Notes under the pieces: generated by a model
The model's database searches: none
Told to the model about the DNA's origin: nothing
Seen by the model: only the letters and a program-made list of their open reading frames with translations
Translations under genes and position numbers: made by a program
Shown: piece after piece, positions 21,601 to 58,100 of the stretch
How positions within the stretch are numbered: the first letter of the stretch is position 1
Layout: the number at the start of each line of letters is the position of its first letter
Assembly: GCA_030141605.1 (NCBI GenBank)
Contig: JAQGDQ010000096.1
Coordinates: 496,001-560,000, forward strand
Direction of reading: 5' to 3'
Length of the DNA: 64,000 nt
Origin: Tubiluchus corallicola
Lineage: Eukaryota; Animalia; Priapulida

Positions 21601-24600
21601 TGTCAACATGCTACCAAGGTTGACTAGAAAGCTGGAACAGCACCTGCTACAAAATTCAAATGCAGTGAAGTCGTGCGAGGCGTGGAATATGTTAACTCCA
21701 GAAGTTCAGCAGAAAGTCTCTGATGGTAAACTGCACTCAATTTTTAACTATCATGACTGACATTTAATAGTTGCAAAGCTTTTACTCAAATGCAGTCATG
21801 TATTTCGCATAGAGGCAACTTAAGAACTGTGATTAGGTTAAGAGTTTCATCATTCGGCTTCTAATAAGTGATATTTTATCGATAACTTTTATACTTGTTA
21901 AGTTTTGTGTACTCAAAAGCAATTCTAAGCACCTGTGATGGTGTAGAACTGGCGAATTGCACATGTTTCCATTTAAAAACCACAGTTCACATGTTTTCTT
22001 TGTTCTTTGGTTGTACTATCATGTTAGAGATTCCACGATCATAATGTCTCTACCAAGATTTCGTTTTTGATTTGTGTTCAGACAAAATGACATCACGCGT
22101 TGTAAGATCACTTGATCATTAAGTCAACTATGATGTTATGAAAGTTTAAAAAATGTAAAGAGAAACCACAGGGGCAAGAAAACTGGAAGAAATGTTTTTT
22201 CCACAGATCTGCATGTCTGTGATTCATTCTACTTACGTTATATTTTTTAAAAGACGTTTTAAATAATTGATTTTATTGCATTGTGCATTTATACAAAATT
22301 TTTTTGTTACTTGTTGGTTTTGGTTTATGTTGCTTTTGTGTCTGTTTATTTTATTTTCTTATCATTTTCCACTTGTTCATTTCAGCTGCCATGTTTGTTG
22401 TTGACATGGAGAAGCCAAAGTCTTCTCCTCCTCGCTTTTCCAGTCTTAACAGGGTAAGAATTTGCTTAACTCCCGTTTATGCATCGAGCTGGCGCAAACC
22501 CTTCACTTCCTAGTATTTAGATTTAGAAAATGTGTCAAACTTCCTGTAGACTAATGATGGAATCTGTTATATAAAAAAATGTTGCCAAAATGCTAAATTT
22601 ACCCAAATGTTAGCGGCTGTTCTGTAGTCATGACAACTCCATGGCTGTAAAATGTTTTTGTCATCTCAGCAGATGATTCTGTCCATTACTAGAGGTCACG
22701 CTGAAACGAGTAATGTTACAAAAAACTTGCTCAGTAGCCTGAGAAGGTCAGAAAACATTGAGACATGTGCATATCAGTTGTTGCTAATTCTACGGATCCG
22801 CATTTATAAATATTAGTCACAGTTGCACTATCATTATAAAAACACTGACTGAGATAGATTAGGATACAAGGTACCATTTCCTATTAATTAGTCAAATTTT
22901 GTCAACCCCAACTAATGATTAAATAAAAAAACTAGTAATTTTAATTGACAGAAAGAGTAAACATTACTTGTTTGAGTTGTTGTACAGTTTACTGAAACAC
23001 TGGGAAATTTATGGGCATCCGCTGGGGGTGTGGGCACTAAGTCATTTGCCACCCCCTGGATCAGGCCTTCTAACCTAGGGTGAGGGGTTTGGAAGTTGAA
23101 CTTCATAATTAATTCCGTAAGGAGCGTCAGAAATTTTTCTTTGCTTAAAAATTAAGAGGGATATAAAGACCAGTCTTCTTGTGAAGGGTTACACACTGGC
23201 AGCAAATTATGATTTGAAAAAAGATGCAAAGGGGCCACACAGTTTTTGTCATGTATGATCAACCAAATATTCCCATTGGCTCACTTATTCTTCACACTTG
23301 AAAGGAGCTTTCTGCAAGTATTGTATAATTTTTCCACAGCCTGTTCATCTTACAGATGGGTATGATAATTTAAGCAATAATTGTGATAACAGGAGTATAT
23401 CCCTTTGCCTCCCCTTGGAAAAGCTGCAGCGGACTCCCTTGATTGGAATTGCAATCAGTTACAATGATGCCAGCTAAACGTTATTATCTACAAGTAATGC
23501 TTTGTTTTCTGGACTGTTCTGTAGTCTTTTATCACGGTCCTAATCATATAGATGTTGGGTAAGTAATGTTGTGAGTAATGCAAAATTTGGCTGCATTATT
23601 AAAAAACAGTTTTGGTTTAGCATTTCTAATTTCTAACTTTTGTAATGAATAGAAATTTCGCAACGGTCACAGCATGGAGCAGGATCACAAATCACCGAGT
23701 CCAGAACATCCCAAACCTACTAAAGAGACATCCGTTGCTGCTACTGCAAAGTCCTCTAATGGAACCGCCAATGCACCTTCTGAAAATAATAAAGTTGTGA
23801 GTAGGAAATTGCTTCTTGGTGTCATTGCTACCTGTGACGATCATGATGATGATGATGAAAATGAAAATGATAATGACAAAAATGATTTAATCTATTCTTT
23901 TTAGTAATAGATACTGCTTAGTATTTATATCTGCTTACTAGATGTAATTTAAATGTGAAACATGTGGTGTCTAGTGCATTCTGTAATAGGTTACTACTTA
24001 TTATGAGAAGAGAGATTATGATTATGAACATTATTCAACAAATTTGGTGGTAAAATTGCTGTAGATGATTGTTTGTTGTGAATGTTAGAACAGCAGAACT
24101 CTTGTGACTGTACATTCTGGGTTTCTTTTTACATTGTGATTATTTTCAGGAGAAAGTCAAAACAAAACAAGCGGCAAAATCAAAAGCCGAGAAACCCAAG
24201 GGACCAGAGAAGTCCAAATCATCAACGCAGTTAAAGACTTCCAAACCACTGGCGTCGACACAGCAATCGACAAAAAAACCCACTCGTCCGAAATCGTGGG
24301 CAAGTGACCAGGAATCTGTGCAGTTGAAAGGTAGTTTGTCGTGTTCACAACACATTGATTTACAGATATTGTTGTTATTTGTAAGTGAAATTGTTTTTCA
24401 GCAAAATTTTTACAAGGTCAAATCCAGGTGTTTGGTATTCTTGGCAGCTCTTCTAGCCATTTAAGTGACCATACCATATTTTTCAAAATCACTATTGAGT
24501 CACAGAAAAACGTTATTGAGTTGTTTGAATATTTAAAGCCTGCTCGAAAGAAGTCTTAAAGCCATGATCTTCATTTTGTTTTGCCTCACGTGTGGTAAAT

Positions 24601-25309
24601 TTGTGTTCTGCAACTGCTATCCTTAGGGCTGCCTTTGCTAGAAAGGTGGAATTTCTAAGTATTAAGATTCAGAAGATTTCTTAGAACTTGAAGGGAAGAG
24701 AATATGTGGTTTGCCAGGCATTTACTAGCTAATAGCTAAATTACACAATGGACTTTTACAGGTTTCTTGCAAGAGGTGCAGGTTATATTATTGGCTGAGT
24801 TGTTTTCGGTGTCTATTTAAAAAAGCAATATCTTAGTGCATTCTGTTTTTGGGAACAAAGGTATTTGCGGAGGCAGAAGGTAAATTCAAAAGACAGACGA
24901 TAAAAAGCAATTTTTAAACAGTGGCTGGTTTAAAAATATGAGAATGTCAAGAATCTGATGCAGTGAAGCTGTTGAGCAAAGACTGATGTTTTATTGTGCA
25001 ACAGAATGTGCAAGAATATTAGAACGGCTCATGCTGAAACCTGCAAACTGTTTACAAAATGGTTAGCTTTGTGTATTATTTTCCAGTTGTCATCTATTTT
25101 CATTTTCTTTCAGTGTAAAAATTGTAGCATTATTCTCATTTATAGCAAACAAGACAGCAAAAACCTCCACTACAGGAACCACAAGACCAATTCGAACAAA
25201 GAGTGTCACTGGTACAACTAGCACCCGACCGAATCTGACTAAAAACAAGTCGACGACTTCAAGTGTTCCAAAAAGTAAGATTCCTAGCAACAAGCGACCT
25301 ACCTGTTGA
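5026..25309 (+). CDS. BTBD8: BTBD8-like tandem BTB/POZ (+BACK-like) protein, 15 coding exons, ~1723 aa
   Basis: Phase-consistent GT-AG exons: 5026-5168, 12419-12622, 13183-16228, 16477-16599, 17192-17379, 18054-18140, 18623-18800, 19292-19483, 20087-20269, 20746-20886, 21596-21725, 22386-22453, 23653-23796, 24150-24330, 25146-25309 (TGA). BTB1 reads LQHDMQRLLDNAWHSDVTI..AHELILRAR. BTB2 reads LGRDLLKLYLNSIDTDVVL..AHKCILTARSDYF..IMHYIYGG..ADLYNLDGL..CHFFHKPC, followed by WITKHFHRVWPTKDFATLP. This matches recalled BTBD8-family features. The start codon is uncertain. Confidence 0.82.
5818..5900. repeat. (TA)n microsatellite
   Basis: Interrupted TA run. Confidence 0.9.
6431..6568. repeat. (TCA/TCG)n trinucleotide repeat
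   Basis: Degenerate CAT/CGT run. It produces the spurious poly-Ile/Val and poly-Ser ORFs in the track. Confidence 0.9.
6909..7020. repeat. (GA)n purine-rich low-complexity tract
   Basis: Visible GA/GGA-rich run. Confidence 0.85.
9644..9702. repeat. Compound (TA)n(TG)n(TGCG)n microsatellite
   Basis: Visible alternating purine-pyrimidine run. Confidence 0.95.
12301..12376 (+). pseudogene. Decayed partial tandem duplicate of the 5' part of the BTB1 exon
   Basis: atttaaattcTTGGACAgcaCCTGGCATTattactactacaatgtctgaaGAAATTTtTGtTtATtAtCTAATCTA aligns with 12401-12496 (atttaaatt..CTGGACAatgCCTGGCATT..TTACTATTACAA..GAAATTTGTGCTCATGAGCTAATCCTA). The copy has deletions and lacks the acceptor AG. Confidence 0.65.
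13183..16228 (+). CDS. BTBD8: Giant 3046-nt coding exon of the BTBD8-like gene: end of BTB1 plus ~1000-aa acidic, probably disordered region
   Basis: Corresponds to ORF 13091-16234. Acceptor tcttag|G at 13183 and donor AAG|gtatga at 16228; phases match both flanking exons. Confidence 0.9.
19613..19690 (+). mobile_element. tRNA-derived SINE-like head (intronic)
   Basis: A-box-like TGGTCTACTGG at 19615-19625 and B-box GGTTCAAATCC at 19659-19669, at tRNA-like spacing. No intact cloverleaf. Confidence 0.6.
20354..20400 (+). mobile_element. 5S-rRNA-derived (SINE3-like) fragment
   Basis: GAAGTTATGCAATGCTGGCCTAATTGTAAATGGATGGGTGGTTACC resembles the 5S internal control region and the copies at 45568 and 63684. 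Confidence 0.45.
21126..21212. mobile_element. Short Tc1/pogo(Tigger)-type MITE
   Basis: TA|CAGTCAGACCTCGTTATA ... TATAAAGAAGTTTGAGTG|TA: imperfect TIRs starting CAGT, with TA flanks. Same family as 50984-51197, in the opposite orientation. Confidence 0.75.
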
Positions 25310-28300
25310 TTGGCAACGTTCCCATTGATGAGCATTTCCTGCTTTATTTTTTAAATTGATACCTTTACCTTATATGGTAATTGGTGTGTTAGTTTATTAC
25401 ACTGTGTACTGTGAATGCTTTACAGTTTTTGTGCAATTTTTATATACTCATTACAGCTTATTCAGTCATTTTTTCATACATTCTAGTCCTATATAAGAGA
25501 GCTTTTCCATAACATTGATGACTTAGTTATAGTTACAATCTGTGAAATTGTTAGATCCATCTCAAAGACTTCTCTTTTAGGCTTTTGACCAAAGTTAGTT
25601 TAAATTTGATTCATACCTTGAGTTTTCATCTCCTTTCTTGACTGACGCACTTTATGACATGTTGCAATGCAATGTGCTATGATCTTAAAGCTTTTTTTAC
25701 ACGAAATTTGTGTTAAATATTTCCCATGGAGTTTTGATTTGTTTGGTAGATGTTTATTTTTTTTTAGTTGTTCTTTATTTATAACATATAATCAGTTGAC
25801 ATGGTGCTTCGTTGTTGTGAAGAATAATTAAAATTAGTGCTATGATAAAACTTTAGAGTTTTGGTGTTACTCAATCATGATAGAGTAGGTAGAAGTACCT
25901 GTAAATGTCTGGTATGGAGCTGAGAACGTACAAGCACATAAAAGATGTATGCAAAGCTGGAGGATAGCTGAGCAACTAAGTTTACCTGGACTGCCTATCC
26001 TAGTTCAGTGATTGAACTTGTTCCAGACTGGGAGTAACTGTCAATGCTAAACGTTCTTCGTGCATCAAAAGCAGATTGTTTTGTAGACTGTCTAGTAGCC
26101 ATATAAAGTACATGAAAAATGTCACGTGCTACTTGTTGTAAGACTGTGACACAGTGCCGCATCAAGTATTACAATTTTACATGTCTGTTCCATTCCGATC
26201 AGGGTGATGGAATCCGTGAACATGTGCCATACATTTAATATCATTAGGTATTGTGGTTAAGGTAGATGTAATATTTAGTATCATGTAAATAGTATTTAAT
26301 GTACAGTGTCATTGCATAGCGACGTTTGCACGAACCAGGAGAACTAAGCAAGTTGATGTCTGAAAATAAATTTAAGAACAACTCTAATGTCAAATATTTG
26401 ACCTTGTGTCTTACATTTGTAACCAAACCATGCAGCCTTGATTCAACTTCCTGCTACATTTATCAAGTACTTCTTATTTTGAGATAAGAACTTTTCACTT
26501 GAGCATAGTGGCAGTCCATAGCAGACAATTCTTCCGTCAAGTTTAACTGCAGTTTTTAGTTCCAGCACAGGTAAAATGCCTATATGAGCTGATCCTGGCA
26601 TACTTAGAATATTTGACTGGTAGTCACCCAGTGAACTTACTGACCAGGCACAAAGTTGCTTAGCTTTGATGTTACTGGTCATCCTGTGACCACTCAGCAA
26701 CTCCTTTACCACCGTGAACAAATCCTCGTGTTAGTTTCCTAGGTTGCTGCATATGGATCAGTCGATCTTGACAAGAATTATCAACCATGGAACTTGCTTC
26801 TCTACTGCAGTGACACTGTATTACAACATTAATTCCCTCTGTTGCATGTTGAAACATGTCGTAAGCGTATGTATCACTGTGTTATTCGATTTCGATGAAG
26901 TGCTGTAGAATTGTGTAGATTAGACTTAGTCTGTTGTCCATAGATATCAGTAATAAATGATTAATTACATACACTCCAGTATGTCTACCTACCTCTACTG
27001 TGGGCCTACTGTAAAGTACACATTTTGTAATATGTATTTATTATTAGCTGATAATGTTGGCGAAGCAGCCAAGTTTTCTGAGGAATATCAAAATCATTTG
27101 TCAATGCTAATGGTACTGTGTGCATTTGTGCAGTGTTTTTCTTTTTGAAATTATTAATTGTTCTTACTAATATTTTTTCAGTTTTTGTTTGGTAATTATC
27201 TTCCTGTTTCATGCAAATCTGTTATCTAGAAAGCTGCAAATTTTTTGCCAGTCAGTCAAGTGCCATTTTTTCTAAGCAGACAGATTAACTACTATTGTTT
27301 GCTGATTTGGAAATTTTTCAATTCAGAAGTAATAGGTGGTAAAATCTGTGTTAATTTTTTTGATGCATTATTGCCACGAGTCTTAGTGCAGCATTTCAAA
27401 AATTTGAATTTATATTTATAAAAGCTTTGATTTTATATTAGCCATTCATCTTGAAATGCAGCTGTGTTTGAAGCTTTATTATTTCATGAGAGTAGAAGCA
27501 ATTAAGACTTGTAATGTAACCTTAACAGCTACTGTATATTACTGCAATTTGATACATTTCATGTTGACACCTACGCACTACTACACTTCGTTATTGTGTG
27601 ATTATATTTTTTTGGTATTGCATGTGCATGGTGTGTTGTGATAATATTTTGGTGTTTACTATACTGATAAATTATAATATATATTACTGAGGGTGAGAGG
27701 ATCTAGTCATTTTTCTCTATTTATATTCATCTGTGTATTTATAAGTTATTACATAATAATCGTTTATGTATATGCAATTATTAATAATTGTGTAATCTGG
27801 ACATTAGCAAATCAACACATCTACTGCTTACATTCACTTTCATTAGGTATGATAAAGTCTTGGAAATATTTTACTGTTTAACTTTATACATTTAACTCAA
27901 TTGATGATGGATGACAACTAGTGAAGACTTTATAAAATATGGTAGCAAAATTTTCGAACTCATTTGATTTGTTAACTGACATAAGTTTCTGCCATTATGC
28001 AAATTGCAATCACCAGACTATGCGATGATATTAACTTGATAGTTCTTATTGGTGAATCATTCTATACATTGTTTATTGCCGTTCAGGTGCATGAATGTTG
28101 TAAAACACAACACTTTTTACTTTTTGATTGCAGACACTTCTATCTGTTGCTACTGCCCCCACTGCATTGTCTCTACGATTGTATTTGCTAAGTCATTTTG
28201 CAGTAAATTGTTAGATGTCAACAGTTAACCTCTCTTGGCTTTCTTATTGCTTTACGAGGCTTTATCTATCGCTGCCTAAAGCAATACGTAATGCTTTGAG

Positions 28301-34149: not shown

Positions 34150-35676
34150 TTAAAAGATATATTTGTATATACATGAATATGTATATACAAACACGGATTT
34201 TACTTTATATATATATATATATATATATGTATGAATGTGTATACTCTCTATATGGGCCCAAACTGTAAAGAAATAATAAGTATGCGAGGTTATTCAATTA
34301 AACTCTTAAATATCATGCAATAATTTGTTTACAAAGCTCATCACAACACATAATTTACGCTTAAAAACCTCATATTTAGGTTAAATAAGCCCTTGAACAA
34401 AAGTGCACAAACACCATTAAAACAGTTATGCAACAATGATTAATTCACATTTTAAGTGACGATTATTAATCTAAAACAGCAAGTCACACGACAAACTATA
34501 ATTCTCACATTAGGTGTCTTTCGCTGTAAGCAAAATGTACAACATAAATAGATTGTCATACTGCGTAAAACACAAACTTGAGAATAATGATTTTATACAA
34601 TACTTCTCTGTTTTTACTGCAATGCATTAGTAAGAGTCACATTATAAGGACAGACTTGAACATAATTCAGAGTTTGTGTGAAATGTTTTTACGGGGCTTC
34701 CAATGAAATTTACTAGTATAAAGTTAAAAGTTAATGAAATAAATCCTGCTGCTGAAAACATAGAGTAACCAGCAATGGGACTAACATTATAATAGTTTTT
34801 CTACCCTGCAATGCAGAACTATTGCAGTACTAATTTAACAGTCTTGGATATAATTACTGCCGTAATCTATGAACACACAGATCAACCTAAGCACTAAAAT
34901 ACTATTAAACTTACTAACCTACACACATTTCTATGCACATTGATAGCTAAAACCTAGCTAGCGAAAAAATGTCTTATTCATACTTGAAGATACAACGAAA
35001 TACGACAATGAGATTGCACAACACTACTCTTTTTATAAGGAGTGGAGTATTCAGAACTGAGTAAAAATAAGCTCTTAATAAAATATGCCAATGTTGTAAT
35101 CATTAGTAAACATGCTAAATAAGTAAAATAATTAGATAATGGTGAATATGAATATCTCACAGGGAAATACATTACGTAACTAATACAGCAGGTTTGCAGA
35201 CGTGTATAACACCCAGCATGACTCACAGAATGTCAAGGTAGCATGCAACTGTTCCACTGTGATGAAAAGACAACAAAATTCCCTACACTGTTTTATGCCA
35301 CCCAGACACGCCAGTTTAATGAGTGTTTTTCAAAACTATCATTTACTAATCTATGACAACTCGTATTCGATTAGAAATACTGAGATTCATTAAAGCCCTA
35401 GAACACAACAATTGCAAAAAGTTGCAATTATGGTCTGTCTGGACATTTCTATACCATAAATACAGAATAATCAAGTACTAAATATGACATTAAAACTTTT
35501 AATTCTTAGTAGAGTAAAAATAAATTACAGACACTTCAGTAAAATGACTCCTGAGCAAGGAAAAGAACACGGATACACCTTTAATATCAAATATCTTGGT
35601 TGGTTCTTATGTAAAATGAAAGAAGATTCTAGAAAAATGAAGAGATTCGATGCAGGTGGAGTTGAATAGTTGTGGT

Positions 35677-38600
35677 TTACGTTCTCTGGGCTTTCATTGT
35701 CTGAAAAACGTAATGATAATAATAATCATAGTAGTTTATTCTTAAAAGTGCTCAATCTGAAGATCTTAGTGCTTTTTACAATAAAATTAAAGGAGATAAA
35801 AAAATCATACATAATCAATCACAATAAAAATTATTATGCATGACAATTTAAAAGAAATAGCTACGTATGATACTGAATAAAAATTTGCAGTTACAATCTA
35901 CAGTAAAGATAGTTAAAACAATAAAACAAAATTTGTAGGTAAAAATTTGCATGAAAATGAATCGAAAGTCAACAGAAAATGCCAAAAAAGAACAGAAAGA
36001 AAAAGTAAGAACAGTAAGAGAAGTTCATATGAAAAGCAAGACTGTACTGCATCTGTTTGGTTGACCTTTTGGGTGACCTGTTTAAGGCAGAAAAAGTTTA
36101 ATTAAAGAACATTTGAATGAGAGAATTTTTGCAAAGAGAATGAATGAGACACCAGTATTATACAATAAAAAAGCAACAAATTTTTTATCTGCAAGACTTA
36201 AGTTTTTTCATTTGCATATGAAAAAAGGGGAGGGTGGCAGCATCATGAATGTCACAAAAAGGTAAAGTATTTAACAGGGCTAATTTTACCTCCTTGTGCA
36301 AAGCATTTGACTGAGGGATACACTGACTCTGAAAAGATTCTTAACAAAATCTGTTAAGAACTAGTAGCCACATATGAGCTTGTTGAAGATTTAAAATTAT
36401 AAAATAGTTGTGCCATATGGGTACCTAGAAGTCATTGGTACCACTCCTGTTATGCTGATGCTTTCTGCATTTGTGGTTTTTGCGTGAAATGGTCTCAATG
36501 AAGAATTTTTCTTCAGTTTTGTGCATTTATTATTGTGCATTTGCTCCTTGTGTTCTTCTTCTGTACGACCAGTTTACACTTAAAGCATAACACTACATTT
36601 GAGTGCACTCAAAATGCAAGTGATTTGTTTCTGGAAGAAAACTGCAAAAGTCCTGCAAAAGCATTTCAGTTAAAGCATGCAGCTTACCCGACTAATGTCG
36701 ACGCCCGTCATTGTTTCTACAACCTTTGGTAACTGACTGACAATATCCATGACTTCACCAGTGAGTTTTGATGCACCCATTTCACCCTTGCCGCTGCTCA
36801 CCATCGTCACCTTCTTCGCTTGAGACAGTGGCGCCGCCACCTCTGCGACCACCTAGAAAGAACAGTATTGCATCGAATAAGCAATGTATGGAAATCTTGC
36901 CTTACCATTTCTTACTTGTACATTAAAAATATAATTTCTGAAACTGTAATTCCTGTAAGTAAAAGGAAAAATGCTGCATGGCACAAAGCACTCAAAGACA
37001 GGGATTACTCATGGAACTGTTCGTGGCATCGAGGATATCTCTCTAAGATTAGACTGTGAAAGAATAGATTAGCAACAACTACAAAAGATTCATGACAAGA
37101 TCATAAGATGATGAAATAACTCAACACAAAAACTAAAGCAAAAACTGTTAAAAATTTAGAGCAGATTGGTTCCAATAAGTTTGTGGTTCATTTCACAATG
37201 ATACCTTCGGTAGTGTGTCCAGTACCATATCCACCATCGCAGCATCCTTGTATTCCTTCCACGCATCCGCTTTCTTTGCCATCTGTTCCGCTTCTGCCTT
37301 GGCTTTGGCTTCAATTGCAAATGCCTCGGCTTCACCCTTGACCCTCACTGCTTCGCTGGCTGCTTCTGCCTCCATGACAACTTTGTTCCTGGACAAAATT
37401 TGATACACACTACATTCAGTTCTCATTACTATTTCAAAGTTCCTGCAATACATCCTCTTTTAGATTTACAATTTGAAATGTGAAAGGTTAACTTTGCATC
37501 ATTTTGGACATTTGCATAAAAAACTGCATATAATATATTTTATTTTTGTTTTGCTAAAGATAACAGTTCACGCACAACAGTTAAACAGTTAAGCAACACG
37601 GAAATTATGACAACTAATTAACTTTTAATTTGTAAAATAACACATATACAGCAAACAAATACAGTGTAGGCTGAACTTAATGACTTATTTTCATGAAATT
37701 GCACGTTTATAGGAAATGATTTCAAAGCATCATCCTTCCACTACCTCATTCATTTCATCATAATACTAATTCCTACATTCTCACTTTTCCATACTCATAA
37801 TTCCATAATCAGGACAGTCTTACAAGCCTCGGTTTCTGATTAGAGGCATCACAATATGTTATACTAACTATACTTTGTATTTTTGAAATGTAATTTGTTT
37901 GAGAAGATGGAATAAACTACTACTACCACTATAAATACAACCACAGTGAAAATCTACCTAAAATTATTCATATTTCACTGTAAGTTTCATTTCGTGGCCC
38001 AGCAAGGCAGTTTAACATTACATCTCTTAATACAACTTAGTATGGCCTCCGTTGGTGTAAATCAGTGGCAGTCATCCTTCAATAAATCTATCCTGAAACT
38101 GGACTCTTGAACAGACCCAGAAGGGTCATGCTTTTCTAATTTTTGACATCATCAAAAACAAAACAAACTGTTACTTTCTGGAATTTTTTCATTCATGTTT
38201 GCAATTGACTAATCAGTTGCAAGTGCATTGCCTTACATGAAGTGCCTCAACTAACTAATTTTAAGACATATTTTTAACATGCAAGATTCGAAGTTCTTGG
38301 ATGTTTTCATTAACAATCTTACTTATTTGCTTCTGCAATTTTCTCCAGTCTGTATTTCTCGGCTTCGGCTGGCTGCTGAACCTGAGCTGCTAGTTCCTTC
38401 TCCTTGCGAAGGATTTCCTGTTCTTGCAGCGCTATCTGTTGAGCGCGTTCCACAACGGTGATCTGCATTTCCTCTTCCTTGATCCTCTGCTTGGTTTTAG
38501 CCGCCTTAAATAATCGCAAAAAATATGGGTGACAAATATGCATAATAGGACCAAATAAGCTGTTCTGAAATTTTGCTAATAAATGCGATAATACCAGCAC

Positions 38601-41600
38601 AGGAAACAATTTTCGTTACTAATTTAAAACTTTGAAAGAAGTCCCTGTATCCATGGGCGCCATAAGAGAGTTGTTTCTGCAAGGTTGGCTGCAATATCAG
38701 TTAATTTTGCTTTATTGGTATCAAGTATCAGAACGAAACAATAATACGAAGAGCCTACGCAAGCCTTTGAAAAGAAGAAAATACATTTGACCACTTCTTG
38801 AACGTACCTGCAGATCATAAGCCATTTCAGACTGTGCCTTCTTAGTATTGACTTCAATCTCGTAGAAAGCCTTCTTCAGCTCAAAATCTCTTTGTGCAGA
38901 AGCGATGAGGATGTCATTGGCATACCGGGCCTTCATTCTCTGTTCTTCCGCCAGCGCCTCCTAAAAATAAACTGAAATTTTGGTGCCTCCAAATAAGCAA
39001 ATGGTCCCATTTCGGTTGAAGTGTCGCTCTACAAATGACAGAATTTAGGAGTTGAGTAATAGCCAGCACAGCCAGTATTATAATCAACGAAAAATCATAC
39101 CCGAATTCCGGAGTCTTTGTGAGCTTCAGCTTCTCCAATTCTTGCATCCCGGTGCACTTGTGCTGTCCTTCCCATCCCCAGTGCTTTCAGGTATCCCTAT
39201 TTCCAAAACAGAATGCATTTTTTACGCACAAACACTGAAAAAATATCAAATACACTAAACAGACTCCTAAGTTTCTCTAGCAAACATTGAAATATAATGC
39301 CAAATGTGTTCATGACATTGAAGGTTGACATGAGGTTGACTCCACAATTCTAAATAAGGGAAATTTGCAAACTTTTCCACTCACCAATTATCGATTGTAA
39401 CATATAACTTCAAATTCTAAAATTGAACAAATTGCCCAACTGTCAAACAAGAAGCAAGAAAGATGGAACAGATTGGTAAACCAACGACATCTCCTTACTA
39501 AAACACGCTTAAACAGTCAATATATGCAAATTGGTGACAATCAAATCATTTCATTACAGTTTAAAATTGGAATTTACCCTACATTCTTGACATCTTTCAC
39601 AAAATACAATCTTAATGCACAAGTTTTTGCCACCTTGTCCGCACACTTTGCCACAAAACCACAACACCACCTCTACCGACCTCTTCATCGTGAATATCCT
39701 TCAGCGTGTAGCTGACGACGCTGATGCCCATGTTGACTAGATCTGATGAAGCCACTTCAAACACATGCTGCGAGAACTTCTTTCTGTCCTGATAGATTTC
39801 CTAGGTGCAAGAAAGAAGAAAAACTGAACAGCAAATGACAATACCGACCTCTTCGTCTTGTATATCCTTCAGCGTGTAGCTGACTACGCTGATGCCCATG
39901 TTCACTAGGTCGGATGAAGCAACTTCAAAGACATGCTGGGAAAACTTCTTGCGGTCTTGGTAGATTTCCTGCATGCGGTAAGAACACACGAAATCAATGT
40001 GGATTAAACACACATGCAACAAGCTCTACAGGACTCTACTTACATGAGCCTGCTAGTTTTAGTTGTAGAAAACATAGAGAATGACAACTACAGCACAACA
40101 AGCTAATCACACTCTCAAAAAGCCTATATTACTAAAAAAACTACATTACTATTATTCTGAACAGCCTGTTGCTTAAAAGGAATTAATGGCAAACTATAAA
40201 CATAACTTGCATCAGGGTTAGTAGTAACTGCCAGTTAAAAAAAAAATCAAAGCAACAGCATCAAACTTCAACAATAACTTCATCATGCTGCGTTACGAAG
40301 AAAAGCGCGTTGAAAAAAAATCTGCCTTTTATTGTAACATGAAACTTAATTACAGAAATGAAAAAAATGAGTTCCAAAAAGCCAATGGACTAGTCTTTCC
40401 ACTATACTGAAAACTAGTGGAGGTAAAATGAATTACTGGATATGCAATAACGCGTACACAATTTTGAACATCTAGGCAAACACGACTTAAGACAAATCAG
40501 TTCAAATGTTCATTGCTACATATTTATGAAACGATATCGTTATATACATCGTTACAAATGGAACATATTTATGTTCAATTTAAGTAACGACAACGGGAAA
40601 AACAAATATTTTTTGAAAACTCTGCACAAAGAGAACAGAAGCTTCATAAAGACGCTCTAGTCAAAGTATGGTAAATAGGTTAAGTGAAAAGATATTTGTT
40701 CTTGTACAAGCTGATAGTGGCATTTGATGAATACTAACTAGCAACATGACATAAATCAACTGCATCCTGACAATTATAATCAATCTATCAATCAATCAAT
40801 TGCATCTTCAATTTCTGTACCAAAATAAATTGCTATACAATGTGAATGCATGCTGAAATATGCTACTAGACCAACACAACTGGCACAAACACAAATTAAT
40901 GCATCTGCAGTGACTCATATTAACAACACTAGAAATAAAACAACGACATATTGTTTGTAATCTTTGCCAACTCTTGTGGGGGTGAACTGGAACAACTGTT
41001 TTTATCATGAAAAGCAACAAAGCAAGTTAATAGAAAATGTACACTCTGCACCTGCAAAAGAAAATGTAAACAATGCACATTGACAACCACAAACAATTAT
41101 ATGTACGATTTTTTGAAGACTTGTCTCTGTCAATTAAATTGTTGTGTTCAAAAGCCTTTAGAGGTTGTAGAAAGATTTTGTTTGACTTTATTACTTGTTT
41201 GAACAACAAGTAAAAACATCAAAAACATCAACATAAATTTTTGCCATTACAACTTTGGCAGATAGAAGTATTTAGCCACAACCTAAAAGTTGTTTAAATT
41301 TATAAAATGCATCGACAGCTAAAGGTTTTACACTATGGCCACTTAAACAAATGGCAAGTTTGGTAAACTTAGAAGATCTGCCTCACCTCTACAGTCATGT
41401 TTCCCATGATGGCTCTCTGATGTCCCTCCAGGGTTTCGTGTGCCACTCGCATGATCTCCGACTCACTCTTTCCGAGAAACTGCTGGCAGGCAGCTTCTAA
41501 CATCTCTTTCGTCTGTCCTTGAATTTTTACCTGCCAGCACAGGTATTAGTGCAAGCAAAACATTTGCAAGACAACAAAATAACAAAATAATTGTTTTTGC

Positions 41601-43917
41601 TTTTAGACAAATTTAAATTTCTGATTAAATATTGACCAATAGGCAAAGCAGTTGATTTCTTATATGGTAGGCCCAAATAACAACTCACATTTGCACTGCA
41701 CTTTAAGATGACTTTGTAGCAAACCTGAAGTTTGGATTAACAATCTCATAATGAATGTTTCATTATGAGTCAAACAGTGCTAGCTGCAGCGTATTTGATT
41801 AGTTACTGGGGTATTAAGTTACAAGTTCGCATGGGTGAGCATTTAGTATTTGCATAATAGAAGCAGCTCTACAAAACGTGAAGGTGGTCAACAATGGGCA
41901 CTCGGAAGGGAAACAAAAAACAAAAAATAAATAAAGTGAGTCGCACATATAATGGCACAGTCAGTGGCAACTGGAAACAAACATATTTTATCTACCCCTA
42001 GTTAACTGGCAGAGGTGTGTTAGCCTAGACACCCATACATCCTTTCTTCAAAGAGCTATACGACATGTGAAACTAGCCAGAAATAGATTTTACAGACTGT
42101 TATTAGTGTCTGCCACCCATTCATTTATAAGCAAGGTTCAGCATTGCTCACAATTACCTTGTACAATTATTGCGCAAGTTCACTGACACTATTAATGTAA
42201 ATATGAAGTTTGTATTGCATTTGCCCAAAGCAATTAAGCAAGTACATAGCTTAATTGCTTATGAGTCGCAAAATAAGGTATACATGTAAAGATAGGTCAG
42301 TGTGATTTTCCTTACATGTAATGCAGTACTTACTATTATTACTATGTCTTAATTACAGCTTGTTCAAAAAGATTATCACTTACTTGTGCAATTCCTGTCA
42401 CAGATATGGCCACGCCCAACCGGGTGTAAACTTTTGGACTTGTTATGCATAAAGTCATCGTATTGAGACTCAATCTGAAAACGAATTAATTATAGTAAAA
42501 CTTATTTACAAATAAAGAATTGTATAGGATGCAATAAATTACACTAGTGAAGCCATTACATCTAAACTACATCTAACTATCATGATTAAAGGGAAGAAAA
42601 GACAATTTTAAAGTATGTCACAAAAAATGTCTGTATAAAGTTATATTACCCTGCATTCTAACTTAAAGAAGAAAATTCTTAGTAATTTAAAATGTTTTTG
42701 CCAAACATTCCCATTCACAGACTCACCTTTTCAGTGTGCACCACTGACTCACCAAAAAACGTATTATTAATCTTACTGACAGGTTTAGACATTTGCTTAG
42801 CTAGTGAAGCACTCGCAACGAATGCTCTGATTGTTTTTTTCAAATTTTACACAATGTTATCTAAACTTGTTTCAAACGACCTATTGTCGAAATGGCTATA
42901 CCTAATGATCATCGTTTTGCAGTTTAAATTTTCAAGTTTTGCACATCGTTACTGTTAATGCAAGCTTTGTATGCAATTTGACAGCATGTAGCTGATATGA
43001 AATTTTTTTAAGGCACTTTTTTTAGCTTAATCTAAGAAAAGAGTTTTCTTGTACTTTAATTATCTAAGTTCCAGTATTAAAAATAGTCTTATTCATCTAG
43101 TAGTCTATAAATCAAGCAATATATAACATATGACCACTCATATTGATGCCATCAAGTCTTAGATGCAGAATTAAAATATAAGCAATTTTATAATCAAGGA
43201 AATGCAGATTATCTATATGATTAAAACTCACCTCTGAATTTCTTGAATGTACGGCCACACAAACACCCGACCACCACACACCAGCCTGGGCTTGCTATAA
43301 CAACAACCTAAACATATGCTCTCAAATATAATTTTTTCACTGAAAAAGACTTCTTAAAATCATCAATAATTTTACAATGTTTTGTACAATAAATACCTGC
43401 ACTTTGAATTTTCTCCTTGGAAAGACAGACAAGATAGTTGATTATTAATTACCATTCACACGTTTTCTCTATAAAGATTTATGTGCTCCAATTTTTTTAA
43501 AATGATCTTTTGGACATTTTAATTTAGATAAAAATTAAAATGTTTTGAAAAAGTCGCAATATAACAGACTATTTTTTGTAGATGAATTGAATACATTAGT
43601 ACTAGACTTCTGTTTCATAGTGCACTTCTGAAGACAATTCTGTTTACCTTTTATTACGATATACAGGAAGCGTGCATCACACCACAACCCATCACATTAA
43701 TTTAAAAAAGACATCATTTCTAGTTTGACAAGCTGTCCCATGGTGACATGTTAATCATTCACACAAATTTTTATGTGTGGCCGATAATAATACCTAGTCA
43801 ATTTTAGAAGACCATACTGTTTGGAGTTATTCTACTGATTGAATAACACTTCGTAATTACCTAAAACCTACCTGAAACCACCATGGCCTCATTTGGTCCA
43901 CAAGTTTCAAATCCCAT
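35677..43917 (-). CDS. FLOT1: Flotillin-1 (reggie-2), SPFH plus flotillin coiled coil, 426 aa
   Basis: Exons: 43917-43872 ([15 protein letters not shown]), 43307-43232, 42474-42384, 41530-41387, [39968-39849 OR 39800-39681], 39196-39101, 38960-38808, 38504-38323, 37388-37205, 36852-36688, and 35700-35677 (TMKAQRT*; this last exon is less certain). All junctions are GT-AG and phase-consistent. Motifs include [30 protein letters not shown] and [13 protein letters not shown]. Confidence 0.96.
39681..39800 (-). CDS. FLOT1: Flotillin-1 exon 5b (duplicated exon, His variant)
   Basis: acctag|...|gtcggt, 120 nt, phase 0-0, [40 protein letters not shown]. Confidence 0.9.
39849..39968 (-). CDS. FLOT1: Flotillin-1 exon 5a (duplicated exon, Gln variant)
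   Basis: atgcag|...|gtcggt, 120 nt, phase 0-0, [40 protein letters not shown]. Confidence 0.9.
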
Positions 43918-44248
43918 AATTACGCAAAAGGGATAATTTACGTTAAGGACAGAAACTGCACAAGCATAAAAATGTAAAGAGAAGAAAATGCAGTGGATAT
44001 AACAGCAAATGGATGTTGAAAAGGCTGTACTGACATCTAGCGAACGATCACGGAAAATATTTTTACTATTTTCGAAAACTGTCAGAAGGTGCCGCTAATA
44101 ACTTTTTGCATAATTTGCTCCAAATCAGCTGACATGCAGGCCTCTGCCCACATTTGCGCACGTGGCAGGGTCCAGGAAGGAATAGAAGAGTGTAGCATCA
44201 AATTCTGTCATCGTTATTATCGAAACAGGTGGATATTGATTTCTGAAC
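43918..44248. promoter_or_regulatory. Compact bidirectional promoter/5' UTR region shared by FLOT1 and PRDX6
   Basis: The divergent ATGs at 43917 (-) and 44249 (+) are only 331 bp apart. CACGTG E-box at 44159-44164. Confidence 0.7.
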
Positions 44249-47200
44249 ATGGGTATCAATCTGGGAGACGCTTTTCCTGATTTTACTGCTGACTCATCAC
44301 ATGGCAAAATCATCTTCCACGAATGGCTAGGAAACTCGTGAGTAGGAGTTATTGTAATGTAGCAATACCGGTACAGAGCCACTATAAATGTGGCAGTGCT
44401 TGCAATCGCTGCTTGTCAAGCTAGGCCTATAATCTAATTTAAAGGTACCTTGGGTTTAGATTCAATTTAGTATTATTTTATTGTTGCAATATTATGGCTG
44501 CAGTTGGAAACCACGAGAAAAAGTAATTTGACAACGAAACATAAGTTGAAGATGATAGGCGATTGATTTCTGAACAGAGGTTATCCCTGGATAACAGTGA
44601 CTTAAAAGCTTGGTTTGCATATTGCATTAATTACTTCAGTGGTTTTGAGGATCATAGTTCAGCGTGTTTGAGTTGAATTAATGATGCGATGTAGAGGTGA
44701 AATAACTATAAAAACGTAATTAGCATTAGCCTGGCCTGTCACTCATTCGTCAATCACTTCCATTGATAGACTCGGTGCATTGCCTATTGTTCACTAGTAG
44801 ATGTCTTGAGCAGTCATTTTTAAATGCTTAATAAAGTGCTATAGGCATTAACACAGCTCTGGCTGCCCCATTTTCAGCTAAAAGGCTACTGATTGAAATT
44901 GGCCCCGAGCTACACTATAATTAATACTGCAGCAGAGTGACTTCCCCACAAATGGACATGGTTATTTTGCTTTGTGGCATGCAGATTTTGCCGCTGAAAG
45001 GTTTTATACACAGCCCGCAGAACTTGCAGTAACTGGTTAGAACTATTGTCACGGACCTATAACCTCATTTTGGCCTTGAAGTAACTCTGCACTCCTAAAT
45101 ATTAAGTTTAGTCCTCAGACTGTTCAACAGCATGTAAATAATACCTTGATTAGCTCCAGATCTCTGCCCACATCAGTTGGGCCTTAAATGTTCATATCTT
45201 GACTGGACTTTGATACAGTATTTGCCAGGGTCCGTACGATAGAGCTAATGTTTAACATACAACTCGTAAAAACTAATGAATAGTTTCTTGCTGTAATAGC
45301 ATATGCACAACCAGAACCTGTTTTGCGACATTATACTTTTGGTAATTTTACCTCCAGCCATTGCTATTCATTCTAAAGTTTGTCATGAGGACTGTAAAAA
45401 GATAATGTTAAATTTGCAGGAGGAGTATGGGTATAATAGACTGCATTCAAATCTGCTTATTTTTTTGTTAAAATTTATGTATCATACTTTGCTACTTTAA
45501 CATGTAAGCAGTACAGAAATCCATGCATGACAGTAATAGCTGAGTGAGTGGAATAATCTGACTGCATGAGTTAAGCAACACTGGGTTGGGTTAGTTAGTG
45601 GATGGGTGACAGGCAAGAAATCTGCTACTTAGGAATGATGTGTTGCATGCTAGGTAAGATATGTCTGTCAGTTTAGTGCTACTTATCTTACGTACTTATC
45701 TTGGACTTGAGACCAGGAATTTAAGGGTAATCAAAGCTGTAAAACGTATTAGAATTAACTTTCACGGTGCACTGTACATATGTTTGAAAGCAAATGTTCT
45801 GAAAATTGCTTTTTTCTCATCTTCACTTGTCCAGATGAATAAAACAGGAAATGCTTGAATTTCCTGGCTAGTGCTCCACTTCAGATCTTGAGCACGTGAT
45901 ATCTGGTACGTAAGAATTGTACAAAGTGTATGCATATATGAATGTACTATATTAGCCAATGACTTGCTGGGAAAACATAGATGAAATATTGTCCAATGAA
46001 CATTGACAGCTAAATTTAGAAATATCAGCTTGAATTTTATTTCCCAAGGACATCTGGTCATTAACTTAAAATGATAAAATCAGATATCATGGCAGAAATG
46101 ATGAAATACAGCCAGTTCCAGAATAAATTAATGGGAGAAAACTGGGAATAAATTGTGGGTTACTGAGGGGTGAATTAAGTGAATTTATGTCAATTATGGC
46201 TCTGCACAGAACTTTAAAGATTTTAATTGGTGCTTAAAGCAAAACCGGACCCAATCTTAAAGTGTGAGTCAAAACAATTTACTTTTTAAAATGTTGAAAG
46301 GAAGCATACTATTTTTTTCAAAAATGACTTACGTGAACAATATCAATACACAAACACAATTTTGCATTCGCGCCACTAGTTCTTCGCTGCTACATCCATT
46401 TCACTATTTGCTAGTTAGATGGGCACTAGCACCTGGATTTCGGAAAAGGCATTGCACACAAAACAGGTGCTGTACTTCTCAGTTCAAATGTGTTAGTTTG
46501 TGACAAACTACGCACGTTCAACAACTTGTGTGTACACAGCAATAAATTTGAAATTCGAATTTCTATCTTAAAACTTCCCTAGTTTTAGTACAACACACTA
46601 AGTATCTTACACTAGCACTGTACTTCAATTTTTGCTTTTGCAAACACATGCAACATGCATGTGGAATATTTTTTCTGTTGAAAATTATGTTAGTTTGTGA
46701 TGTCATCAATAGTTGTGCTCACCCACCACTAATTAAGTTTTTAATCTATTATTTAATTGTAACAAAAACGCTTTTGCTATATTAATTGTGTTCAATTGTA
46801 TACTTCTTATCTCACTTGAAAATATGGTAGTATATCAAAAGTCATCCTGTCTTCCTTACAGTGTCTTTTAAAACTACAATTCGTCTAGTACTATAGACTT
46901 GAATGCCAATTACACGGGTTATTGATTACGATGCAAATTTAACACTATGTTTACATTCAAGAATTAGTTTGTAAGGGCAGATCCATGCAAACAGGGTAAA
47001 AAACACTTTAACTCGAGATATGCTATAATGGCATAGTTCTCGACAGATGCCATATACTGTGAATTGACCACGAGCAACTCGCTGTAACTGAGTTGCATCA
47101 CATTGAATTGCACCGTAAGCTTGCTTATGTCGACTGGATATATTCGGAACCAGCGGCGTACCGTATGCCACTAGTCTCTGAGTTTCCAATTGCTCTCAGT

Positions 47201-48740
47201 TGTGTTGTGTCACAAGTTCGACCTAAGCCTGCCTTAAGTAACCTGTATAAATGACCTGTGTGTTCTCAAAGTGTAATTGTACAACATCAGAGTCCTCTTA
47301 AGATAGTACAACCCATCTAACCATTGTCTGTATGTTTTATAGATGGGGAATACTCTTCTCCCACCCAGCTGACTATACGCCTGTGTGCACCACCGAGCTG
47401 GGGTCTGTCGCAAAAATGATGCCGGAGTTTCAGAAGCGTAATGTGAAACTGATTGCTCTCTCCGTCGATGACTCCGAGTCTCACCGTGGATGGATTAAAG
47501 TAAGTTTCCTCTGAACTGGTGCACAGCTATCGATAATTCTAAGAATGGGCTGTATTGTAATATTGTTGCAGCTGAATTTCCACAAACTGTGTAAGCATTC
47601 TCAAGAGCTCAGCAGCTTGCTCACTGCATCTGACCTTTAGACCACATTCAGGATCACATTTCACTGTTTGTGCTTAAAACTTTATGTACATTTTTAACAG
47701 GACATTCAAGCCTACATGGGGGTGAGTGGTGACTTCCCATATCCCATCTTAAGCGACGAGAACCGAGAACTTTCCATCAAACTGGGAATGCTCGATGCAA
47801 AGGAGAAGGATTCAAAAGGGATGCCGCTGAACTGCCGCTCAGTTTTCATCATTGGGCCTGACAAGAAGCTTCGTTTGTCCATACTCTACCCGGCCACTAC
47901 CGGACGTAACTTCAAGTGAGTATCTTCCTGTGCTCTGCCAGCTGAGCTACTAGTTCAATATATTGGCATAGCATGGGAATACTAATCTCAGGACTTGGGT
48001 TCAATTCCCGCTAGTCCACAATTCTTCAGCATCTTCTTTCTCCAACGCATTACCCACAATGGGTAATAATTGTTAAAATTAAACTGCAATGGTTTATAAA
48101 CATCCTGGCTATCACAGTCATAATCTAACTAATTCATGATATCATTAGTTGCCAGCTAATTTGAGAAAAGAGTTGATACTATAAGTATCCCCCTATTGTC
48201 ATGTGTACCAGTGGTGCTGTTGGGATGGTGTGCTACAAGGAGGAACGGGCCTGCTCTGTCAGGTTGAACTAGTAGCTCACCTGGCAGAGCACAGGAGTAC
48301 TAATCTCAGGTCTCGGGTTAAAATCCCAACTAGTCAACAATTTTTCAAGGTCTCCTTTCTTTCTCCAATGCATTACCAGCAATGGGTAATAATTGTTAAA
48401 AATAAACCTCAATGATTTTTAAACACTCTGGCAATCACTGTCATAATCTAACTAATTCACGATAATGTGAATAAACTTGGCAGTGTTTTCCATCATCGTC
48501 ATTTAACGACTCAAATTAATAATTGGCTTTGATTTCAGTGAAATACTCCGTGTCGTTGACTCGCTCCAGCTGACTGAAACTAAGCAAGTGGCAACACCTG
48601 CTAATTGGTGTAAAGGTGAACGTGTGATGGTGGTGCCATCTGTCAAGCAAGAGGACACTCCCAAACTGTATCCACAAGGCGTGGAGGTGTTCCCGTTGCC
48701 ATCCAAGAAGCAGTACCTTCGCTTCACGCCACAGCCTTGA
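44249..48740 (+). CDS. PRDX6: Peroxiredoxin-6 (1-Cys peroxiredoxin), 4 exons, 220 aa
   Basis: Exons 44249-44337, 47343-47499, 47701-47915 and 48539-48740 (TGA). The product reads [80 protein letters not shown]. The peroxidatic PVCTTE and the GxSxG (GNSWG) motifs are intact. AATAAA at 49172. Confidence 0.98.
45568..45622 (+). mobile_element. 5S-rRNA-derived (SINE3-like) fragment
   Basis: GAGTTAAGCAACACTGGGTTGGGTTAGTTAGTGGATGGGTGACAGGCAAGAAA resembles the 5S A-box/IE/C-box segment (AAGCTAAGC..GGTTAGTACTTGGATGGGAGACC). Confidence 0.6.
47959..48141 (+). mobile_element. tRNA-derived SINE, copy 1 (PRDX6 intron 3)
   Basis: B-box GGTTCAATTCC at 47998-48008. The body aligns over ~180 bp with 48264-48464 (shared TACTAATCTCAGG, CAATGGGTAATAATTGTTAAAA, GTCATAATCTAACTAATTCA). 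Confidence 0.75.
48264..48464 (+). mobile_element. tRNA-derived SINE, copy 2 (PRDX6 intron 3)
   Basis: tRNA-like head TAGCTCACCTGGCAGAGCA (A box/D arm) and degenerate B-box GGTTAAAATCCC. The body is homologous to copy 1. Confidence 0.75.
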
Positions 48741-55127: not shown

Positions 55128-58100
55128 TCACCAACGACATAGACCCTCATACCATCTAGGTGCTCGGCCGCGGAAGTACTGCTCAGCTGCAAACTGGCAC
55201 AAGCAGTAGGCGTTCCGTACGTGTTGTGGCTTCGGACGGCATGTCACGTCAATTGCAGCACTAGGAAAATTGAGCAGATCTCGAGCCAGGCTCTTCAAAT
55301 AATGCTGAGAAAAGCGTAAAATTGTTTTCTCTGCTTTGATCTGTAAATTAAAATTTACAGTAAGCATGATCATTGTACATTGTACCTACATAAGACGATC
55401 AACTGAACAAAATGTTTAGATTTTAAAAATGGTCACAACTGCACACAAACTTTAGTGATTGTGATTTTATTTATAGACAGCACAATTTGTGTAACTAATG
55501 TGAATGTATCAACCAAATAATTTTCCTTTAATTTTCCTTTTGCACTTGATTTGCTGTAGTATAATTCAATTTCTACATCATCACCAACCGTGGTCAAGGA
55601 AAATGCATAAATTAATTTAACGTGAAGCATGATTACATAATAACTTATTACAATAAAGTAGCTAATTAACTAATTAATTATGTTCATTATTTTACCATTC
55701 TTTGAGTGTGTGTCATGTTAGTCGCAGCTGCATTCCCCATTATTGCTTCCGTATCAGCCTCCAGCGTTGTAGCGGAAACCGCGCTACCGGCTACTGGGGT
55801 GATTGTCGTGTCCGTCGTATCGACAGATGAGTTTAGTGATCCCCCTTCCTGAGACTTGCTGCTTCTCTTTGACTATACACACCAACAAGCGAATCAACTC
55901 AAAATTAAATAGTTACGTTTTCGATTCTCTGATTAATGGCCAAGGCGATCCTTAAAACTCTAGACTGGGTACCCATGAAAAATCCAAAACAGCTTTCAAA
56001 ATTCAGGTCCAATATTTCTTATATGGACAGGACGGACTTTGGTAGTCCAGAAATTCAAGTTCCAAATCTGAATCTGAGCCTTGATTTGGATTATGCTCAG
56101 GATTTATTTTAACTGCTTCGGAACCGATTCAGTTCGGTAAAAAATTGTGAAACATTTACCATAAGTTATTTGTCAACTCACCACATGACTGACATTATTC
56201 ATTTAATAATAGTGACACAGCTTACACAAGTTTCAGTTATTGCGCTTTAGAACACAAAAGATATTTTAGCAAGGTTGTCTTTAATTTCCTTTTTACTTTC
56301 CAAAGTGTATTAATTTAGTTTCAAATACGAAAGTGCAGTCATGAAATATGCTAAAATTTCTCAGAATTTATTGTACGCATGAACAGTTTGCATAGTTTTC
56401 AAGATGGCAACAGATAAGAGAGCAAAGCACGCTTAACATGAAGTAAGGCAAAAACTAAATCTGAATTAATAAACTGTGTTTAGCAAGACCGTTATGTTTC
56501 AACAAAACTCTATCATTCATTGCAGCTAAATATTACTGCATTGATTCTAAGATGAATTGGCATTAAGTTACAAGATTCAGTTTCAATTTGGCATTGCAAA
56601 ATAAGCGAATTAAAGATTCGGGATCGTTTGGGTTTCGGAACCTGCAAAGTTGTGAGATTCGAATTAGATTCGGTTTTGGAAATTTAAGTTTCGTCCCATC
56701 CCAATTTCTTACTAATAAAAACTACTTACATAACAAATGCTATTCTGCACCGCAAAAGTTTCCCAACATTGAAAAAACATGTTAGTGGCCATTAAATGAT
56801 GAACAACTGATTGAAGTAGATTATAAAAACAAAGTTACGTTATAAAAAATAATTTCTCTACAAAATTATATTAGATACGCCAAAACGAATGTGTAACCAT
56901 CTTCTGACGCACTCCTTACAAAGTTATGCTCTCTTTGCTGTGTTTTTGAATGCCCATAACACACACACAGCATTAACACTTATAAAACGTTAGTGTAATG
57001 AATTTCATCACATTCTTATACCGTTGCTATCACAACTCAAGATTTGATGCCTAGTACCAAGCGAGACACTTATTATGGATGACACACACACACTGTAGCT
57101 ATAAACAAAATGCAGCAGGAATGGTGGTTTAGTGAACTTACATATTTAATGCTACTCGTTTCAGAACCGGAAACTGAGCCCCCGTGTTTCCCTTTCTTTT
57201 TCTTCAGTTCATCTTCGAGCAAAAGTTGACAGAACTGAGTCTACAAAGAAACAGAAAATATGGGAATTTAACATGAATGTCTCTAAAAGCGGCTTGAACA
57301 CAAATGTCCTTAAAACAACTTGAACACGAAATAAAAAAGAACATTTTATATAAGCTTGTATCATTACACTACAAAAAAATTGGAATTACAAATAGAAATA
57401 CAAATACGGTTACAAAAAATTGTGCCATAAGATGTCAATTGAAAAGGTTTAGAATTTTTCAGTTGTTAGAACGAATTTCGGAAAAATTTGCGAAACTTGG
57501 TTTTATGTAGATCATATAAAAAGATATGGAAATTAAAAATGGATTATTTATTGATTACGAATAACTTTTAGTTGCTGATTATCAAGAAAATCTAACATTG
57601 TTCTGCTTGGTGACACTGAAATTTGAAGTAATCTGAATAATACATTGACATGACCTTCATAGGTACAAAGTCATACTACTGTCACTAGACAAGAAGTTAA
57701 AAAGCTTTTGGTGCTCTAATATAGTTATTTTAACAACTACAGCTTCAGAAGTAGACACATCTGACACATGAGCTTGAATACTGGGAAATGAAAACAGTTC
57801 ACAAAAAAGTTTTCAGGTTTGGTGAGCCACCAAACTGACAATCACACTTATTATGTTGCACCAACACTTTTATGATCGTGTAGTTGTTAAAATTCGTAAC
57901 CATTTCGCTTAGCATAATATACAAGTTCAAACTGAAAGCAACGACTGCCCAAGGCACTGAACAAGCACTTTTCCTTTGCAATCAATGTTACTAGACTATC
58001 AATAAACTTAATGTAGGCAAACGTATTTACTCAAGTAGGACCAAATTCTTTAATTCAAGAGATTCAAAACTGTTTATTCCACATCAACACAAATATAATA

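Follow-up and report, generated by a model that had tools for sequence, protein, structure and literature searches.

The flotillin-1 gene in the window, that is, the whole 64,000-nt stretch of DNA analysed here, carries two intact tandem copies of its fifth coding exon, referred to below as exon A (upstream) and exon B (downstream) (Table 1). Both exons are very likely used, in a mutually exclusive manner. Given such use, regulation of the choice by tissue is likely, and near-equivalence of the A and B products would in turn be quite likely. Taken as a whole, the explanation favoured here, tentatively, is that one or the other copy is spliced in, that the choice is set by tissue through RBFOX-type motifs and that the resulting products are near-equivalent.

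The flotillin-1 gene and its exon pair

The gene was assigned to flotillin-1, nearer to FLOT1 than to FLOT2, by domains and bit scores read on the nearest named protein, Priapulus flotillin-1-like (P0018). This protein is 76% identical to the flotillin-1 model of the window, has Band_7 and Flot domains and scores 560 bits against human FLOT1 vs 372 against FLOT2. The window protein and the Priapulus protein group together with a support of 98/96 in a tree of 14 rows only, and the animal is therefore probably priapulid-like. A peroxiredoxin-6 exon, with best hits at 72-79%, did not resolve the taxon.

The initial annotation had described twin 120-nt phase-0 exons with intact splice sites and a common donor GAG/GTCGGTA, all of which was confirmed, as were the 15 nucleotide differences between A and B (14 synonymous and 1 non-synonymous), which are spread over 14 codons. 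The sole replacement is Q/H at residue 156. The two exons are 97.5% identical in protein at a nucleotide divergence of 12.5%, the longest run without an A/B mismatch is 23 nt, and the flanks beyond the splice sites are unrelated, with 17 of 48 positions identical on each side. A and B are thus alike in length, phase, splice sites and sequence, as in homologous mutually exclusive pairs, and no second doubled exon of flotillin-1 was found within the window. The non-consensus donor was considered as a mark of alternative splicing and rejected, because the same GTC donor is present at this exon in 5 of the 59 genomic loci from other animals at which it is single, and it is therefore not special to the duplicated exon.

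Inclusion of one copy, be it A or B, gives the normal 426-aa flotillin-1 that had been claimed, while the predicted product is 466 aa with both copies and 386 aa with neither. Retention of the intron between them runs into the in-frame TAG already pointed out and ends the protein at 174 aa. Intron 2 of the gene contains a high-copy interspersed repeat (window 42590-43020), where the summed depth of the DNA-like run X1 was 1240-3330 vs ~15 elsewhere. No Rfam match was obtained at 35000-45000 of the window.

Table 1. Positions of the flotillin-1 features, the motifs and the neighbouring genes in the window, and of tandem exon copies at flotillin-1 loci (L) of other animals.
Feature	Position	Strand	Remarks
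Flotillin-1 coding region	35677..43917	-	11 coding exons (pair counted once), 426 aa
Exon 4, upstream common exon	41387..41530	-	144 nt; single here; duplicated in L016, L056, L061
UGCAUG overlapping GUGUG by one base	40009..40018	-	50-41 nt upstream of exon A; adjoins candidate branch site 40007-40003; predicted RBFOX + RBM24/SUP-12-type silencer
Second GUGUG (39989-39985) and GCAUG (39976-39972, -8 to -4)	39972..39989	-	In acceptor region of exon A
Exon 5A (upstream copy)	39849..39968	-	Residues 120-159, Q156; 120 nt, phase 0, CAG acceptor
Intron between exons A and B	39801..39848	-	48 nt; in-frame TAG at 3' end
Exon 5B (downstream copy)	39681..39800	-	H156; 120 nt, phase 0, TAG acceptor; copy matched by spliced contigs of a relative
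Exon B donor	39674..39680	-	7/7 nt same as exon A donor (39848-39842)
Exon 6, downstream common exon	39101..39196	-	96 nt; carries Y161 (human Y160); single here; duplicated in L040, L055, L059, L056, L061
Exon 4 tandem copies	L016:866-1338; L056:1399-2141; L061:362-1011		Intact splice sites, 9-14 residue differences
Exon 6 tandem copies	L040:2294-2928; L055:3552-4088; L059:2690-3224; L056:3840-4428; L061:2831-3418		3-9 residue differences; holds Y160-equivalent
DNL zinc-finger gene	1815-2336	-	
Multi-exon BTB/BACK gene	12399-25310	+	Includes one 1047-codon open frame; presumably BTBD8-like
1-Cys peroxiredoxin (peroxiredoxin-6)	47302-48737	+	Head to head with flotillin-1
Three open frames resembling exons, no Pfam match	55131-55872	-	Probably another gene

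Selection on both copies and age of the duplication

Purifying selection on both copies had been claimed in the initial annotation, which proposed dN/dS as a check. Over 23.8 synonymous and 96.2 non-synonymous sites the comparison of A with B gave a dS of 1.15 and a dN of 0.0105 (dN/dS 0.009; Fisher p 4e-11), which bears the claim out. Continuous neutrality of one copy from the duplication onwards predicts ~38 replacements, and 1 was seen; neutrality for a tenth of that time has a probability of 0.03. The case for use of exon A is thus one of selection, not RNA, and the substitution pattern places both copies under coding constraint. Judged by a dS >1 the pair is old. Silent sites of A and B (14/24) are more diverged than those of the window and of a relative sampled by run X2 (at most 0.37; P 0.03), and the duplication therefore probably predates the split of the window animal and this relative.

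The 48-nt intron and probable one-at-a-time splicing

The spacer between A and B is the shortest of the 25 introns examined, the next being 140 nt, in a sample too small to set the minimum intron size of this animal. The other 10 flotillin-1 introns span 140-1418 nt and 14 introns whose positions in two neighbouring genes were assigned by eye ~200-1200 nt. No yUnAy site was found within the 48-nt intron and plausible branch adenosines are located only at +13 and +24, which puts the predicted branch point at most 24 nt from the donor. The earlier observation of a 48-nt spacer was correct, its branch point is predicted to lie close to the upstream donor, and the geometry fits steric exclusion. 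The pyrimidine tract of the B acceptor is the strongest among the 11 acceptors of the gene (0.90 vs 0.50-0.70), that of A being 0.65.

The steric limit for the distance from donor to branch point is given as under about 50 nt (PMC5740500, PMC7969005), and with the predicted branch adenosines the A/B intron falls below it. Given a 48-nt spacer whose predicted branch point is no more than 24 nt away from the donor, a steric either/or choice between A and B is likely. Some doubt is cast on steric exclusion by C. elegans, which excises introns as short as ~40 nt (PMC4165533). Enforcement by NMD does not apply, as the frame stays open upon A+B inclusion, and a frame shift cannot impose the choice since double inclusion keeps the 466-aa frame. 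A switch at the RNA level had also been put forward in the initial annotation; as far as RNA structure is concerned, pairing was sought and none was found above shuffles. Exclusion by docking/selector pairing was not above chance, with a local fold z of -0.5 and with the best intron helices reached by 103/120, 22/120 and 183/200 shuffles. One of 22 duplex tests, pairing of the exon 4 donor with intron 5-6, stood out at 1/100 shuffles; it was rejected as it disappeared over whole introns, where 103/120 shuffles were equal.

Spliced RNA of a relative

No RNA run carrying the window's own sequence was listed, which is no measure of its expression. Run X2 was identified from its contigs as spliced RNA of a relative, because the contigs are ~8% diverged from the window in exons (64 differences over 773 nt) and skip six introns at their ends. 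Of the differences listed, 16/17 are silent, and six exon joints of the flotillin-1 model are seen. Among these are 41387>39800 and 39681>39196, in which exon 4 is joined to one B-like exon and this in turn to exon 6. The joints support, for a B-like exon in a relative, the claim that single inclusion is the normal product. At 80% likeness 2/2 contigs fit B and 0/2 fit A. The X2 exon has at most 10 differences from B and is B-like at 5/6 readable sites that differ between A and B (hand reading; p 0.11), and it is likely orthologous to B. No A-type contig was present in X2, which is one run represented by contigs only from a relative that may have a single exon, so that this is not evidence of absence; nor was an A-to-B junction (39849>39800) listed, where contigs likewise show presence, not absence. 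The X2 contigs break within the exon. One contig of 152 nt has 25 loose letters that repeat the middle of exon 5 joined to the middle of exon 4 (window 39729-39758 and 41441) and is probably a library chimera.

Motifs upstream of exon A and a proposed mechanism

Two GCAUG motifs are located within 60 nt of the acceptor of exon A, and the upstream motifs surround two candidate branch sites of that exon (Table 1). GCAUG is absent from the other 10 acceptors of the gene. At the single-copy loci of other animals a GCAUG pair was observed at this exon in 0/59 and a single GCAUG in 1/59, and in the window two GCAUG were found at 5/3774 YAG sites, with the UGCAUG/GUGUG 10-mer occurring once. The chance of the pair is P 0.0017 at the site of A and 0.019 over 11 acceptors, for a motif that was spotted by eye before counting. 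UGCAUG and GUGUG upstream of the upstream exon and near its predicted branch site form an egl-15-type arrangement, and this layout suggests RBFOX-type control of the A/B choice. The initial annotation, while sound in its description of the exon pair, had overlooked these motifs as well as the duplications of neighbouring exons elsewhere. If such control is true, an RBFOX/SUP-12-like layout outside nematodes, in an animal grouping with priapulids, would suggest a regulatory grammar that is either ancient or readily regained.

In the proposed mechanism the 48-nt intron would be too short to remove, U1 at the donor of A and U2 at the branch point of B being unable to load together, so that joining of A to B would fail and one copy would be retained per transcript. 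Where present, as in muscle and neurons, RBFOX and an RBM24-like protein would cover the branch site and acceptor of A, and with A covered B would be chosen via its strong pyrimidine tract. Elsewhere, without such cover, A would be the copy spliced in first. Near-equivalence is predicted for the two 426-aa products, and each copy would feed subunits to a cage with 22 flotillin-1 chains, the flotillin cage being a 44-mer (PMC13000311). Both copies would then stay under selection because, by the arithmetic of 22 chains, 10% use of A would already put an A chain in 90% of cages.

Residue 156 and the flotillin cage

The initial annotation had also envisaged a switch through the single Q/H residue, a proposal that lost ground. 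Among 252 aligned homologues, a redundant set picked by similarity, the residue-156 column contains nine residue types (R 170, H 42, K 26, T 5, S 4, N 2, E 1, Q 1, D 1) and is one of the four most variable of the exon's 40 columns, and a Q/H protein switch is doubtful on that account. The sole Q belongs to the Priapulus protein; exon A therefore probably retains the ancestral Q, the single replacement having fallen on B by parsimony.

In the Priapulus flotillin-1 model a helix (125-141) and the final SPFH2 strand (145-157), which residue 156 ends, fall within the exon, and a long coiled coil extends from 161. As the exon encodes this helix and strand, a double copy is expected to be disruptive to the protein. 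Residue 156 aligns to human H155 and Y161 to human Y160, a hinge tyrosine of human flotillin-1; the cage no longer assembles when this residue and flotillin-2 Y163 both carry phosphomimetic mutations (PMC13000311).

Flotillin-1 exons in other animals

Comparison with other animals was based on the best 80 of 185 confirmed loci, consisting of 60 genomic loci (49 distinct exon sequences) and 20 cDNA-like loci in 3-kb pieces. A second copy of exon 5 was found in 0/59 other genomic loci, 22 of which display both flanking exons, and the Priapulus protein cluster has 1 member. The exon 5 pair can accordingly not be called a conserved switch, as had been claimed. The neighbouring exons gave a different result within the same best 80 loci: exon 4 (144 nt) was duplicated in 3/29 loci showing it and exon 6 (96 nt) in 5/38, counts that refer to loci related to one another and not to independent events, with L055 and L059 nearly identical. 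Exons 2, 3, 7, 8, 9 and 10 had 0 duplicates in 9, 16, 22, 15, 7 and 5 of these loci, respectively. In L056 and L061 exons 4 and 6 are both doubled, which allows up to four combinations.

The exon 4 and 6 duplicates have intact AG/GT, phase 0, spacers of 185-455 nt and synonymous sites near saturation. Copies pair up across loci, the first exon 4 copies of L056 and L061 being 96% identical and the second exon 6 copies 100%, and these duplications are for this reason regarded as older and shared across loci. cDNA-like loci carry one copy each, L057 one like second-copy exon 6 and L021 one like first-copy. The exon 5 peptide of L040, L055 and L059 is the same as that of the clam Mactra, which suggests that these loci are from molluscs. 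In the cDNA-like locus L001 a 16-residue insert (665-712) sits precisely where exons 5 and 6 meet, at the SPFH2-CC1 hinge, and is possibly a cassette exon. The proteins P0001, P0002 and P0003, in which the exon 5 peptide is present twice, were examined and are not tandem double inclusions. In three bird flotillin-1 models (P0004, P0017, P0029) the exon is closely followed by degenerate partial repeats of its own 3' end, which may be an intronic minisatellite annotated as coding.

Because other animals have separately doubled the neighbouring exons 4 and 6, exon duplication appears to have affected the hinge region of the flotillin cage repeatedly. A wider proposal, which we consider decidedly unlikely, is that animals have repeatedly and independently made hinge exons swappable (human FLOT2 at exon 3, other invertebrates at exons 4 and 6, the present animal at exon 5) for tissue-specific cages, with an egl-15-like RBFOX/RBM24 switch here altering one residue five positions ahead of the regulatory tyrosine and tuning cage assembly in muscle. 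Three adjacent exons (4, 5 and 6) around the hinge controlling cage assembly, each duplicated in some invertebrate, provide natural variants for structure-function work on the flotillin cage, a wider result that carries more weight than the pair itself.

Alternative explanations

Several other explanations were weighed against a tissue-regulated choice between near-equivalent exons. It is fairly unlikely that the pair persists as a neutral trap, with an A/B ratio that is the same in all tissues and favours B and with selection acting only to block decay, a clean loss of A requiring a deletion or loss of its acceptor that has not yet happened. The single near-neutral residue difference would agree with this, as would the codons of B, which are the gene's commoner ones at 9/12 informative positions (p 0.15), and the intact acceptor of A, since a neutral base remains unchanged with P 0.60 at the estimated divergence and a two-base acceptor would hence survive with P ~0.36; the GCAUG pair upstream of A is, however, rare by chance to the extent given above. 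A regulated Q/H choice at residue 156 could alternatively tune the SPFH2-CC1 hinge five residues before the tyrosine whose phosphorylation is proposed to disassemble the cage, by altered kinase recognition or pH response for instance. We regard this as unlikely given the nine residues seen at the column and the text of the structure paper, which makes no mention of H155 (PMC13000311), even though residue 156 lies at the strand end beside the counterpart of human Y160, a hinge residue needed for assembly (PMC13000311), flanking exons are duplicated with 3-14 residue differences in other animals and the L001 insert is located at this very junction.

A recent loss of function that has left A silent or almost silent, with B constitutive, is quite improbable. 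X2 shows a B-like exon only and the pyrimidine tract is weaker in A than in B, as such silencing would predict, but any neutral period of A can make up no more than ~a tenth of the age of the duplication, no splice site of A is damaged, a tract of 0.65 is ordinary for the gene and rare forms are lost from contigs. Excision of the 48-nt intron, giving some transcripts that encode a 466-aa protein in which the helix and the strand occur twice, is highly improbable: single inclusion is seen in X2, the intron is without a canonical branch site, the other 24 introns examined are >=140 nt and no tandem double peptide occurs among the 240 homologues listed. These points outweigh the reading frame being kept, the ~40-nt introns excised in C. 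elegans and the flanking introns down to 56 nt at single-copy loci of other animals. Two alleles or paralogues set in tandem by the assembly would be a trivial explanation and an extremely improbable one, already largely refuted. Differences between X1 and the window elsewhere show that the material is polymorphic, and X1 may be the source sample, which makes the run independent of the assembly and perhaps not of the animal. Against this, a single 421-nt X1 contig (39634-40054) bridges both copies with 0 differences and 0 gaps, the A/B divergence is restricted to synonymous sites, the flanks are unrelated and no other exon of the gene is doubled. Together with the longest identical run of 23 nt, the contig upholds, as far as testable, the initial dismissal of a collapsed allele or assembly artefact.

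Comparison with known systems

Searches of the openly accessible literature, made with the exon 5 pair in view, found no duplicated flotillin-1 exon, and FLOT1 had no match in the text obtained from 10 supplementary files of PMC5740500. The same supplements list (cluster 1201) a mutually exclusive pair in human FLOT2, at a 91-nt exon that corresponds to exon 3 of the present gene, which like A and B consists of tandem homologous exons of equal length within the flotillin SPFH2 domain. The duplicates of exons 4 and 6 resemble A and B in being adjacent phase-0 exons of the same gene with intact AG/GT, whereas they differ in the exons affected, in their longer spacers, in the number of residue differences and in being shared between loci.

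For the tissue-regulated choice preferred here, the closest regulatory counterpart is egl-15 of C. elegans, in which a UGCAUG/GUGUG layout represses the upstream exon 5B in muscle (PMC2777236, PMC4165533). The egl-15 5B/5A pair shares with A/B a very short intervening intron and the placement of UGCAUG and GUGUG ahead of the first exon of the pair, close to the branch site of that exon (a candidate site in A), but its intron is 14 nt, its exons are of unequal length and their protein identity is ~10% as compared to 97.5% for A and B (PMC2777236, PMC4165533). Regulation and phenotype are proven for egl-15 (PMC2777236, PMC4165533), while regulation of A/B is predicted from the sequence. Exons 4a/4b of OGDH, among the steric pairs of vertebrates, likewise combine a pyrimidine-rich downstream acceptor with a branch point that is no more than 50 nt away from the donor upstream (PMC7969005). 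They differ in having distant branch points in a longer intron and exons that differ in function (PMC7969005), the A and B products being one residue apart. Mutually exclusive pairs are a well known and common class of mechanism to which this pair alone is a modest addition. As an old pair with one difference at a variable residue it nevertheless offers a clean test case in nature for the persistence of such pairs in the absence of functional divergence.
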